The notes below the pieces were generated by a model, which was given only the letters and a program-made list of their open reading frames with translations, made no database searches and was not told the origin of the DNA. From Amoebophrya sp. A120 (taxonomy: Eukaryota; Protista; Dinoflagellata): a stretch of 64,000 bases of DNA. Location: assembly GCA_905178155.1 (NCBI GenBank), contig CAJINV010000006.1:564398-628397 (forward strand), read 5' to 3'. The position numbers and the translations under genes were made by a program. Shown one piece after another: positions 48,587 through 54,500 of this stretch (positions are counted from its first letter, which is position 1; every line of letters starts with the position of its first letter).

Positions 48587-51500
48587 TTACTTCACTGCCT
48601 CCAGCGCCCCTGGCCCAGGTATCCAAGGAAAAAACATTGTAGGTGTGACTTTTTTGGAGGAACAGCATGACAAATATCTCTTGTCGATCATGACAGCGAA
48701 AACCTGTCATGCGCAGATAGTACGTAGAAACGCGCGGCCTAACTGGACCTCACAATGCATGACCAGCATTTCTTCTTGACCAACACATTCACTTTGTGCG
48801 CCGCATCACAAACTTACACTAACAATGTTTTTTTCTTCTATACCTGGCTCGACTTGGGAATCATTGCCATCCTCACTGTGGTTTTCCAGAATCAAATGTA
48901 AAAAATATCTCTGGACGTCTGGAAAGATGGAGACAATTTCTCATGGCCTTCCTTGGATACGGCCAGAGGCTCTTCTCGTACGGCTCAACAGCATGACAAG
49001 TTTTTGTTATTTTCCTCGGCATTTGCTGGCGAGGTTTAGCAATCGTCGATTTAGCATGACACCCTTTCAACATCCACCACGAAAGGACTTCTGGTTCTGC
49101 CCACTCGTCCTATCCATGCATTACAGATCATGCTCTCCTTCAGATTCTTTCGCATCACAAATCCAGACCCAGATCGGTGTTTGCAATGCATATCCAGAAT
49201 CGGCCCACACTTAGTCTCCGACTGATCCCGTTCCTCGCTGATGCGCCTTATGCCAGAGAAAAAAGCAGGCAGGGCCGATCATTATTTGTGATGCAAAAAT
49301 AAATACACACTAAAATTTGTCATGGGCGGCCCCATAGCATGCTGTTTACTTAGGATGCGCAACACATTTTTTTTTGTGTGTTTATTTTTGCATTACAGTT
49401 TTTATGACCTGCCTGCTTCTTTCTGTGTGATACGCCTGCGGTAAAAATTATAGCGAAGTTTTGTAGCTTTCATGCTGATTGTTTTTTCGAAGTACTAGTA
49501 CTTTGCATGATCGAAATCACTGTATCAATCTTTCGCAATAAGAACGCTACCCATGGTCATGGTGCATCATCTGCGACCGCATTTATTTCCGAACAAAGTA
49601 CTTTGCAACACAGGACCAAATCGCGAAAATTTTCGGGTAAAAATTTTGTTTCTGTATTACCTGGTTAGCGTCATCCGAGTTGTAGCGCTTCTCGAGCTCA
49701 AACTTCGCCCCTGGTAGGACAACGTGTTATAATTTCTCGCGGCCCTCGTCTGGGATGATGACGACGATGATGACGATGACCTGGATAGGTCGAAGCGAGC
49801 GAGGTCCTCGTCGAACAAACTGCAAGCGGTTGCTATGAACTGCAAAAGTATCGCACTCGTATAAATGCATTACAAATTTCCTCAGCATGATGAGAAATCA
49901 AATTTGTAATGCGGATATACCTTAACAAAAGGATTTGCAATGCATGATTGCAATACGAGTACGATACTTTTGCACAGGATAGTCGCACCACTTCTACCCG
50001 ACAAGGACGTCATGGGCCCTCTCCTTGAATAAACAGTGCCCCCCAGGACCTCCGCATCGGAGGCGCTCCGGGCCAGGGAATATCAAATGTAAAAATGTCT
50101 GGGTCTGGAAGAATGCAACTTGTGATGCTGAATTTGGATTTCCAAAAAATCTGTATTGCATGAGCAGCAAATAAAGGAACGCATCTTTTGCTACGCGGAC
50201 AGGGCATTTGTCATGCGGAACAGGCATCGCGAAGCCCTCAAGAAATCTGTGATGCTAGGGCATGCATCACAGACATCATGGCCAATGCAAAACATGCATG
50301 ACAAGTCTCAGAATCTTCCAGACCCAGACATTTTTACATTTGATAGGGAATAATCGCTCGGCATTTTGTCGCCCGAGTAGGTTAGAGACCGAAGCCTGCT
50401 CGTCACTGCCGTTCCAGTAGGACAGAAATTTTTTTCCGACAGCGCAGTAGACGTACTCGTTGTAAAGCTAAAGCGCTTGCTCGGCTTAATAATACTTTTT
50501 CCAGTTCTTGCAGCAGCAGCAGCAGCAGCAGTGGCAGCAGCACTAAGCGAAGAAGCAGCTTGGAGTTCTTGCGGACCGGTCCGCCCGCTCGTTTCAAGAA
50601 GAAAGCTGGACGTCGACGCGACGGGGAGGTTCTTTGCACCACCGCGGTGTCGAGACGAGAGAGTGCAAGAACCCCGTTCATCCACCTCGTGTGTACTGTA
50701 CGTGCGCTGCTGTAGTTCTTTTGCGTGTAGTAGTACTGTGTCGACCTGGTTGGAGGGTGTTGAAGCGTCGACACCGCGATGCCGGGCGCTAGTAGCATCC
50801 TCTTCGCAGTGAACCGTACGTGCTGCAGCCGTTGTTCCGGAGCTTTCACACCCGTTAGCATGAGAAGTGGCGAATTTGTAGTGAATTTTGCATGACAAAG
50901 TGCAGATGAGTCCGGCGGGGCGTTGTCCCTCTTGCCCTTCTGGGAAGTGGGTTCTGCACACCGACCGCGGAAGTTGTCAAGGCTTATGCGGCGGGCGGCT
51001 TCTAGACATGGCCTGGGCGTCGTTCTTTGCCCATATCTTTTCGTCTCCCTGTGCTCGCATAAGGGCACAACACTGCAACAGCCACAGCAAAGACGCCAAA
51101 CATAAGGGCTCCGGAGCACATAACATAGGCAAGATGAAGGCGCGAAAGCAAGGGCGAAAGGACCAGGCCGAGAGCTTTGACGCGTCTATCCGGCAGGCGC
51201 GTGAACTCTCCCGGTCTTTTCGGCAGAATATAGGCGGGCTGAGGGCAGCAGAGGGCGCTTGTCTTTTCCCCTCGGCGCCAATTCCTAGGGCCTATTTGCG
51301 GACTTTTTTGAGCACTTTTCTGCGCTAAAGTTTGCTTATCACGGTCGAAAAGGGGCGCCCGGTGAGTTTTGGGGTGAATTTTGAAAAGGGCGCCGGTGAA
51401 TTTTGAAATCCGGCTCCTGTTCAAAATTCGCTAGCGCATGGGAAACTCCGGGTTTTGCGGCTTCAAAAAAGTGTCCCAAAAACAACAACCTTCAAAATTC

Positions 51501-54500
51501 ACCAAGAGAATTCTTGACCTGGGAGCCACGTCGAAAAAGAGTTTCTCCGGAGGCAAAAACACACCTGGGGAGTTGTAAGCCGAGCACAGCAGGCGAAGCA
51601 AGCTAGTGCCCGTGGCCGAGTCGTGCCTTCCCTTTTACCCGAGGCTACTCCCAGATATCCAATTCCAAGCCACGACCGCAACTCATGAGAGCGCACGTGT
51701 TGAACTAGTGCCCCTGTGTTCAGGCGTCGCCCTCCGTCCCTTTCGACCATTCCGGAGAGGCACTTCTGAGGCAGACGCGCAGAAGAATAAGAGCCCCCCG
51801 ATCCACCTTCTCTGGTCGTTAAATACGCACTACACAGCCCGGCGGGCCTTCGAAAGACCACTTCTTTCGGTCCCGCAAGCGCCACCACGCGATGAGCAGC
51901 CCTCCGCGCTGTGTGGGATGCTTGGGCTCGTGTCCATACGCAGCGCACTTCTCTTTTAACTAAATGCAAAGGCAAGCCATGCAATACAAATTCACTGCAA
52001 ATTCACCCTTCTGTACGCTAACGACCGTTGAAGACATAAGCCGAGCGCTAGTAGCATCCTCTTCGCAGTGAACCGTACGTGCTGCAGCCGTTCCGGTGGG
52101 TGCTAATGCTTTTGACGTAGTATCTAGCACGGGCGGTCGCTCCGCGACCGCCGGAGAGGTATGGAGTAGACAAGGAAACGATGGGCCCGATTTCCTACTA
52201 GGAAGGTTGCAGTCCTCACGGGGAAGGGGAGGGGATTCTCCTGGGGGCGAAAACTCTACAGGCGCAGGGCTTTTATTAAGTGCGCCCGAGCCCCCGCCCT
52301 AGAGAAAGACAAAGGCACGACAGCGGCTCGCCCCAGGCCCCAGGAGAAGGAGAAGCTCCGGGAAACCGATCGAAAGAACACCCGGGGCGAGCCCACCTTG
52401 GGAGGGGACGAGCCTTCCGGGATGTTCCCAATTTGCGAGCACCCCCCCAAGTTGCGAGCCTTACGGGCGGCTGCTCCTCATTCTAGTTACGCCCCGGGGC
52501 TGCTTTTGACGGGGCCCACAGAACCGCAGCTGCGGAAACTGCACGACAAAGAACCCGGCCAGCCAGCCAGGTGCAGCCAGCACAGTGGGACTGGGCGCGC
52601 TGTGTGTGATAACCATTCAGGGCACCGAAAGAAGTCTCCGTTTTCTTTGTGCAGGGCGGCGGGAGCATCCACACCAGGGGGCCGCCCCCGCGAGGCAAAA
52701 CATGCCGGCCCACACAAAGTGCGCGCAAAGCCATCCCCAGCACCGTGGCCGGCCCGGAGGGAGTTCCTTCGCCGGCACCTGCGGGCGCAGCAGCACGCGC
52801 CGCGCCACCCTCGGTCAGATAAAGAAGCGCTCGCCCTCCCACGGCTGCGCCCCCTTTTCCCGGGAACGAGCGCCACGTCCCGCGCGACCACACAGGTACT
52901 AATTGCTCGGCGCTAGTTTCTCCACAGGGGGCAAGGGAAGCCAGCAGCGCGGGCGAGCTTTGTGGCGCAACCCCGGGGCGAACCACCCCGCGCGGCAGTT
53001 TTCTTTTTCTTTTTCTACTAGTAAGCTTTCTCCTAGTAAACTCTCTACTAGTACGCTTACTAGTAGTTTTTTTGCTTGCTTGTCACGATAAGATCACTAG
53101 CAGCGCAGCCTACTAGTAAAATTCTCGGGCTTTCCTTGCTAGTAAGATTTTACTAGTAGAAATCGGGCAATATTACGCCAATCGATTTTCTTGCCGTATA
53201 GTATATAGGGTATTGACTCTTCGCAGTGAACCGTACGTGCTGCAGCCGTTCCGGTGGGTGCTAATGTTTTTGGTTGTCAAGGTAAAGTCTCAACGTTTCG
53301 AAGTCAACGTTTGGACCTCAACGATTTCCAACATTCAATGTTTGCGATCATCTTTGCGATCCCGGATGACAAAATCCGTGCGATATATTTTTGATGGCAT
53401 AAACGCAGAAAGTGTGGGTGTGCTGTCTGCACTGCAAGAATGCTGCGACCGAAACACATGCAACACCCTTGCGTTGATGGTGATTTCCAGACTCCTCTAG
53501 AAACCCACCACAACAGAGAGACACTCCGTGGCGAACTCGTCTGGAAGCCTATGTGTAGCAAAAAGCTCCTACCTCGTCTACCAGCGCTAACCCGCTGCGC
53601 TTGCCTATACCACGAGGACAACGAAAAACCACACCAAGCCGCTGAATGTGCAAGGTTACGTAAGAAAGACGCCCGCCCAAAAAGCCCCGCGCCCAACATT
53701 TGCTCGCGGGCATGTTCGATCGCCCTCGCCCTAGCTCGCTATTTTTGCATACACACCCGGGCGAGTATGAAAAAGGGCAGAGGCGGGATCACTTTGGGCC
53801 CTGTGCAGTGCGACCGCCCGCTCAGCCCTGGCGGTGGTGAACCCCACTACCAGCCCCCGAACACGACTCCTCCACCCCCAGGCAAGAGTGACCACGCCAG
53901 GTCGCTGACCTGCGGGAAAGACCGCGCTGCGGCCCCCGACGACATCACACCTGCGCCACTACCGCCCCGCAGCATTGAAGACCGGGCGCCCGCAACCAGT
54001 AGAGCGCCCCGCCCCGACCAGAAGCACGGGCCTCCTACGAGTCTGCAGCCAATCAGTGGCAGCAGCCAATCAGTAGTAGTAGTGCCGGAATAAAAAAACC
54101 GACTCTCTCACATTCGCTGCTGGATGAAGATGGAAGTCTTATTTTACATTCGCTGGCCGGGCAGCGAACACAAGCGGAGAGTCCGCGCGTGGCAGCATGC
54201 GCAGGCCAATGCGGTGGGGCGGCGCGCGGCAACAGAGGCGGGGGCGGCCCAGCGACGGCTCAACAGGGCACGTCACAGACATGCCTTCGCGGCGCGGCTG
54301 TGAGGCGCTTTTGATTGCTCGCCGGCGGTGTCGCCGGATTCCGCTAAGTAAAAACGCAAAAAATAAGGCCGCAGTGAACCGTACGTGCTGCAGCCGTTCC
54401 GGTGGGTGCTAATGTTTGTGACGCAGTAGTAGAACTCGCGCACCTGGTCGTAGAGGGATGATGACGTTCTTGATCAGCCTGCCCAGACTCCGCCCCCGCG

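Follow-up and report, generated by a model that had tools for sequence, protein, structure and literature searches.

Introduction

The introners of the dinoflagellate Amoebophrya sp. A120 are described in the accessible part of Farhat et al. (2021, PMC7789003) as elements with TAT starts, direct repeats of 3–5 nt, and non-canonical splice sites, and how they move is treated there as an open question. Longer A120 introner families of ca. 1.03–1.19 kb (fam103, fam135, fam74, and fam169) appear in Gozashti et al. (2025, PMC12130899), e.g., fam103 with 27 introns of 1143–1191 bp and non-conventional 5' sites in 24 of the 27; in the portion of that source available to us, these families are labeled "Unknown" or terminal inverted repeat (TIR) and carry automated target-site duplications (TSDs) of 2–5 bp (56 of 58 A120 rows). 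Here we describe a locus of this organism in a 64,000-nt stretch of contig CAJINV010000006.1 (assembly GCA_905178155.1), hereafter called the window, in which an exon of a minus-strand gene is interrupted at 50781..54428 by an array of three non-coding elements, E1, E2, and E3, set between duplicated copies of the exon sequence. The array presents an undescribed-looking kind of mobile intron, i.e., transposon-derived introns that combine long duplications with stacking.

Like Amoebophrya introners in the accessible text of PMC7789003, these elements are non-coding repeats in exons with inverted repeats that pair the ends (E1 and E2), non-canonical splice sites, and partly TAT- or ATA-like ends; E1 and E2, too, are genomic repeats that are cut out of RNA, while removal of E3 is seen in the gene model alone. 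Ordinary elements of the introner kind, 150–330 bp long with inverted repeats and TAT starts, are plentiful in the window, and all four that were checked have direct repeats of 3–5 nt. In contrast, the class of E1–E3 has duplications of 36–64 nt that are kept in mRNA (48–64 nt in the window, 50 and ca. 36 nt at two other loci, L001 and L002), and E1–E3 themselves are four times longer than ordinary introners, differ in GC content (54–60% versus 42%), and are stacked, with E3 lacking an inverted repeat. With fam103, fam135, fam74, and fam169, to which they may belong, they have their size class and the absence of a protein in common (compared by description only; the E1 copy at L001 measures 1191 bp), whereas no long duplication or stacking appears in 56 of the 58 A120 rows of that source (PMC12130899, in part). 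The identifier of the host gene is absent from the 14 supplements of the same study.

All depths and joints reported below come from contigs built with a 31-letter word, in which breaks are expected in repeats longer than 31 nt. The DNA contig sets X1 and X2 are from one sample, as are the RNA contig sets X3 and X4. Three further loci with E1 relatives (L001, L002, and L003) come from another, metagenome assembly whose assembler settings are unspecified.

Four copies of one exon segment around three unrelated elements

The array is marked by an exact 29-mer at 50805, 52064, 53222, and 54370, the four positions given in an earlier sequence-only reading of the window, with no further copy on either strand of the window; the chance of a single exact 29-mer pair in 64 kb is ca. 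2e-8. As that reading had also stated, cutting out 3565 bp yields a single stop-free minus-strand frame. The duplicated segments have staggered ends (host −24 to +28, −5 to +58, and 0 to +50, counted from the start of the 29-bp core) and lengths of 48–64 nt. Between-copy differences were likewise found near the edges, at host −20, +45, +48, and +54, together with a 3-nt insertion behind copy 1, and the variant at +48 is common to copies 2 and 3. All six duplication differences (five in the window, one at L001) lie at most 13 nt from an element end, a clustering with p of ca. 0.0006–0.002 if the changed copy is assumed and of ca. 0.01–0.02 when calculated by hand without that assumption.

Copy 1 (50781..50833; host −24 to +28) is followed by a 7-nt linker (50834–50840) that repeats the last 3 nt. 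Copy 2 (52040..52122; host −24 to +58) forms a mini-exon between E1 and E2 and is met by a contig at 52079–52149 in X1, X2, and X4, while copy 3 lies at 53217..53272 (host −5 to +50) and copy 4 (54370..54428; host 0 to +58) runs into the upstream exon at 54385–54824. Downstream of the array, the host exon at 50353..50828 on the minus strand is covered by RNA contigs and matches 100% to P0001, a low-complexity protein of 1064 amino acids that belongs to no family and that its source names Amoebophrya sp. A120 protein. All exons of P0001 lie at 49054–57631 on the minus strand (tblastn), and the best score in an atlas search with it was 0.82, a lead only.

E1 (50841..52039; 1199 bp, high-copy family) has its right end set by a depth drop at 52039/52040 and its left end by the alignment with L001 and a loose end in X3. 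It contains an imperfect subterminal inverted repeat (ca. 50844–50895 and 51978–52033) and a conserved central block. E1 accounts for nine of the 16 occurrences of an 8-mer motif in the window: five in its conserved centre and a pair at either end, inversely oriented. L001 keeps all nine, and from their letters they look like protein-binding iterons. For a consensus fold of the centre, none of 121 pairs showed a compensatory change (three sequences only), and the motif had no match in viral contigs.

E2 (52121..53209; ca. 1089 bp, also a high-copy family) is delimited on the left by a depth rise and loose ends at 52119–52121 and on the right by a loose end at 53209. It comprises a 9-bp hairpin (52132–52152), palindromic 15-nt repeats (53012–53067), and an inner TAT...ATA unit with an inverted repeat (52160–53200); a viral-contig match to the hairpin (L004) spans 23 nt only and was taken as chance. 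E3 (53273..54369; ca. 1097 bp) is of low copy and without TIR, its ends being approximate (X3 contig 53240–53858 and X1 contig 53424–54399). E1 and E2 have inverted repeats that exceed those of all 500 shuffles, unlike E3, and their end-to-end pairing is as low in none of 200 shuffles, as for an ordinary introner, compared to 28 of 200 for E3.

The three elements are mutually unrelated, with stiff-gap local scores reached by 9–80 of 100 Markov nulls; an apparent kinship under loose gaps (score 72 against a null maximum of 63) disappeared under stiffer gaps. None of eight open reading frames (ORFs) in the inserts scored above the Pfam cut-off, nor did any of the 11 ORFs tested overall, and the three Rfam matches are all far below the gathering score. 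The earlier description of mutually dissimilar inserts with no recognizable protein is borne out by these results, while its statement that TAT/ATA ends are missing holds only in part: E2 has TAT at its family end (52121) and an inner TAT (52160) paired with ATA (53200), and E1 ends on ATA plus 1 nt. Measured against the A120-type start of TAT, 7 nt, and AAA, the inner end of E2 reads TAT, 8 nt, and AAAA, E1 has TAT alone, and E3 has none of it. Among the 15 rows that Tandem Repeats Finder returned for the window, there were no tandem footprints of 40–70 nt.

E1 and E2 are abundant families, and E1 relatives carry long duplications elsewhere

In X1, depth is 21–32 in the unique flanks, 300–2000 in E1, 135–670 in E2, and 25 in most of E3. 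Summed contig depth, which according to a warning of the tool is not copy number and serves here to show abundance and end positions, drops across 52039/52040 from 2898 to 48 in X1 and from 3879 to 72 in X2; it rises again at 52120/52121 in both sets, reaching 1249–3015 in X1 from ca. 52120. Loose ends at 50840, 52039, 52119–52121, and 53209, with 255 or more letters at 52039 and 52121, reveal that other family copies have different neighbors. E1 and E2 are abundant families with sharp ends set at the duplication edges.

A 21-mer of the E1 right end, used in a single scan of metagenome contigs, gave three loci, all of them with E1 relatives (83–87% identical) on introner-bearing or long contigs of 6.7–18 kb. 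L001 holds a full-length 1191-bp copy between 50-bp direct repeats (49/50 identical). It lies within a minus-strand reading frame, which becomes continuous when the element and one repeat copy are taken out; for this host gene, no homolog was found among longer proteins. L002 holds a left-truncated copy between repeats of ca. 36 bp, and in L003 the left side of the relative is not in the contig. Because E1 relatives elsewhere are also flanked by long duplications of their own sites (50 and ca. 36 bp), the long duplication is a trait of the E1 family. The sequence-only reading had suggested checking whether other copies carry different gene-matching segments, and both E1 relatives with two ends (L001 and L002) have a long duplication that matches their own, different site.

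These loci also have finer features in common. All three loci that have the left E1 junction show a 3-nt insertion or repeat there, and at the right junction one synonymous change lies 4–5 nt from the end in two of three. The interior of E1 is conserved at 91–94%, compared to 63–79% elsewhere in the element. From the duplication to the left end, the distance is 60 in the window and 57 in L001, both multiples of three, and the orientation to the gene is identical in the two clear cases. In L003, the E1 relative at 603–670 ends 20 codons behind a possible minus-strand start codon in the same orientation as at the other loci, a weak observation. A fourth kind of element occupies 439–1957 of L002, where direct repeats of 215 bp (213/215) enclose a foldback interior of 1089 bp that has inverted repeats of 170 bp; this element directly adjoins the E1 duplication, and palindrome-rich repeat DNA is also present at 1–438.

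Two RNA joints remove most of E1 and E2 and leave duplicated codons in frame

Both X3 and X4 represent spliced RNA, as they skip an introner at 54825–55162. For E1, an X4 contig of depth 6.8 joins 50828 to 52040, removing 50829..52039 on the minus strand (TT..GG, non-canonical) and leaving 48 nt, the same cut as in the P0001 model and one that falls exactly at the E1 right end; a cut at the corresponding position of the element would preserve the frame in L001 as well. For E2, an X4 loose end at 52155 continues as 53200–53211, which removes 52156..53199 on the minus strand (AT..TC), again as in the P0001 model, and leaves 114 nt including ca. 50 nt of the element. Both remainders are in frame and stop-free (chance ca. 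0.08, i.e., 1/9 × 0.69), and the spliced path has similar X4 depths throughout (7.4, 8.3, and 6.8). Over E3, the gene model places a minus-strand intron at 53261..54384 that leaves 24 nt and takes both its GT and its AG from duplicated host copies, as in the concept of intron gain by tandem duplication. The array segment of P0001 thereby counts 99 residues compared to 37 in the single-copy reading. According to the available text of PMC7789003, Amoebophrya gene models were built from transcript alignments by choosing the longest ORF.

The elements are therefore likely spliced from pre-mRNA with the duplicated codons kept in frame, and most likely act like long introners. The sequence-only reading had looked to RNA for the restored single-copy junction: the two X4 joints retain the duplications instead, and an in-register restored junction is invisible to contigs, such that mRNA with a single copy restored may also be present. 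Template switching by reverse transcriptase as the source of the 50828 joint is unlikely, as there are no common letters at the joint despite an available 53-nt repeat. RNA contigs match this locus's own E1 allele without difference and reach their greatest depth over the left portion of every element (50804–51309, 52079–52249, and 53240–53858); transcription may begin within the elements, or transcripts may be trans-spliced there.

The array is very probably chromosomal

E3 is one contiguous molecule from junction to junction at an X1 depth of 25.1, compared to 23.9 and 32 in the flanks; depth of inserts against flanks had been proposed as a check, and E1 and E2 lie far above unique DNA. Many family variants, among the best-supported ones that are listed, have depths of 19–32 or higher multiples, and a 3893-nt contig (depth 22/42) joins 87 nt of the E2 left end to ca. 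3.1 kb of other DNA. No go-back joint of the kind expected from a circle is listed in the contigs, which could not show one across repeats of more than 31 letters. Because E3 has single-copy depth, some of the family ends are found on long contigs, and the same architecture recurs in a second assembly, a chromosomal array is favored, and we consider it very probable that the array is real.

A proposed route by staggered cuts with error-prone junctions and competing explanations

The explanation that we favor, with confidence poised midway, is a staggered-cut route with error-prone junctions. An enzyme supplied in trans would cut the target 36–64 nt apart, be it in target-primed reverse transcription or as a wide-stagger transposase, and gap filling would duplicate the target and err beside the element ends. 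New elements would prefer the duplicated segment beside a resident element, and exonic insertions would persist only where end pairing allows splicing with a remainder divisible by three. Long TSDs are known from other elements, e.g., 126 bp for R9 and >50 bp for Dualen in the available part of PMC9977147.

Several points weigh against a chromosomal, spliced array made in this way. Staggered cuts alone explain neither three families within 25 bp nor differences that cluster at the edges; there is no visible consensus common to the four target sites; E1 and E2 ends have no poly(A) tail and no tRNA head; and no autonomous partner was found, nor was one searchable with the data used. Each RNA joint is one X4 contig, assembled without the genome, and X3 lists neither; no E3 joint is seen in the X3 or X4 contigs. 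X3 and X4 may be the data behind P0001 and would then not be independent of it, confirming the joints and not their share in mRNA. Finally, contigs yield one and the same graph whether an element is integrated or a circle exists beside an empty site; two junctions are never covered by a single read or contig, and X1 has no contig that links the E1 right end to copy 2.

The strongest rival, though somewhat unlikely in our view, is homology-addressed insertion as put forward in the sequence-only reading, in which a circle or chimeric cDNA that already carries a 50–65 nt gene copy enters through one crossover within the exactly matching centre. It would account at once for three unrelated families at one site, for staggered ends, and for edge-confined differences, and the edge clustering that the sequence-only reading had noted is real and fits a crossover with a carried copy. 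The 3-nt insertions or repeats near the E1 left junction, the conserved E1 interior with its iterated motifs, the similar unit sizes (1148–1304), and the position of E1 beside another unrelated 1089-bp foldback element in L002 can be read in the same way; if E1 and E2 were circular, their inverted repeats would flank the gene segment like a cassette. The absence of a go-back joint speaks against this explanation, albeit weakly; family variants near 1x also do, and no source for the carried segment is apparent except an earlier insertion at the same site. Moreover, gene conversion between short repeats leaves differences at edges as well. Spelled out, several families of non-coding circles of ca. 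1.1–1.2 kb, each addressed by a 50–65 nt exon copy between inverted repeats, would integrate by homology, pile up, and be spliced to leave in-frame peptide repeats, a scenario that we regard as doubtful.

Separate entry of each element into different alleles, at a break-prone hotspot with duplications made by repair, followed by stacking through unequal crossover between the 50–60 bp repeats, appears improbable. Direct repeats permit any stacking order in a register analysis, and copies 2 and 3 have the +48 variant in common; however, three independent hits within 25 bp would still be required, and L001 and L002 show that long duplications are routine for E1 and no repair accident.

Least probable of all are free minicircles that the assembler walked through at common stretches of 48 bp while the chromosome has a plain exon: the contig graph and the frame restored by in-register removal are compatible with this, junction contigs are few for the family depth (5–8% of the aligned contigs run on unlike), and the published pipeline closed gaps with GapCloser; yet single-copy E3, family variants at ca. 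1x or multiples, long contigs with family ends, and the second assembly stand against it, a circle gives no reason for RNA remainders to be multiples of three, and the same pipeline broke scaffolds wherever Nanopore reads flagged a junction (PMC7789003, accessible part). The sequence-only proposal of free gene-matching minicircles or assembler looping is therefore not supported as the main explanation, though circles may exist.

Relation to other mobile elements and minicircles

Beyond introners, points of comparison include R9 and Dualen, non-long terminal repeat retrotransposons that, as far as the available part of PMC9977147 describes them, also have long and variable target duplications and one sharp end, with a left-truncated copy in our set (L002); unlike them, E1–E3 have no reverse transcriptase ORF, tail, or tRNA head, contain subterminal inverted repeats, and are spliced out. 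A short interspersed nuclear element (SINE) would be expected to have variable TSDs, a precise 3' end, and 5' truncation; the duplications here vary and the right end is sharp, but the one truncated E1 left end among three could stem from a later deletion. TSDs of 22–50 bp occur in the CRE clade. A SINE-like 3' tail or tRNA-derived head was not found in the E1 and E2 ends, a tRNA scan, or Rfam.

Helitrons end in TC..CTRR. Neither such ends without a TSD nor short direct terminal repeats, as in a Replitron or Helitron (HUH), are present in E1–E3, which have long duplications. Replitrons, in the part of PMC10288648 available to us, resemble them in having non-autonomous members, hairpins, fuzzy ends, variable TSDs in Replitron-1, and possibly circles, but E1–E3 lack Rep as well as short direct terminal repeats, and TSDs are absent from most Replitron families. 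A CRESS-type satellite circle was rejected: its conserved nonanucleotide stem-loop has one match, in E2 alone (53168), and the interval 53169–53178 is altered or missing in other copies of E2.

In kinetoplast minicircles, cassettes consist of 50–60 nt of gene-matching sequence flanked by inverted repeats. The guide-RNA minicircles in the accessible text of PMC9202587 also share a size of ca. 1 kb, a conserved block with a variable region, and overlapping, staggered coverage of one site. In contrast, E1–E3 lie in nuclear exons at about single-copy depth, and their differences are not G-U wobble. A literature search did not bring up any report of long duplications or of stacked elements in Amoebophrya, including in the available parts of PMC12005148 and PMC11282704; Roy et al. 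2023 (Curr Biol) and the supplements of Farhat et al. were beyond its reach and may bear on novelty.

Other features of the window

A second, more decayed duplication of 60–70 nt (24 nt exact) is located at 43480–43555 and 44569–44622, 1083 bp apart. Its two copies flank AT-rich sequence (GC 0.42) shortly beyond the end of an ORF on the minus strand, and it may represent either an old insertion like those of the array or a 3' end that was duplicated. A 30-bp direct repeat (93%) lies at 47865–47894 and 48398–48427, 533 bp apart. ORF pieces at 17009–17575, 24163–24552, and 60891–61388 resemble Ran GTPase, importin alpha, and tryptophanyl-tRNA synthetase, respectively, as tentatively judged from motifs.

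Implications for Amoebophrya genomes

The array would define a class of elements with duplications of 36–64 bp, far above the reported 3–5 bp, that are retained in mRNA. Each insertion would add an intron and 8–38 amino acids at once, with a gain of 62 amino acids here in the P0001 model, which may be one way in which the rapid change of proteins reported for the genus Amoebophrya comes about. If it is true that a carried gene copy guides insertion, this would be a new targeting principle and a homology-addressed class of eukaryotic mobile element.

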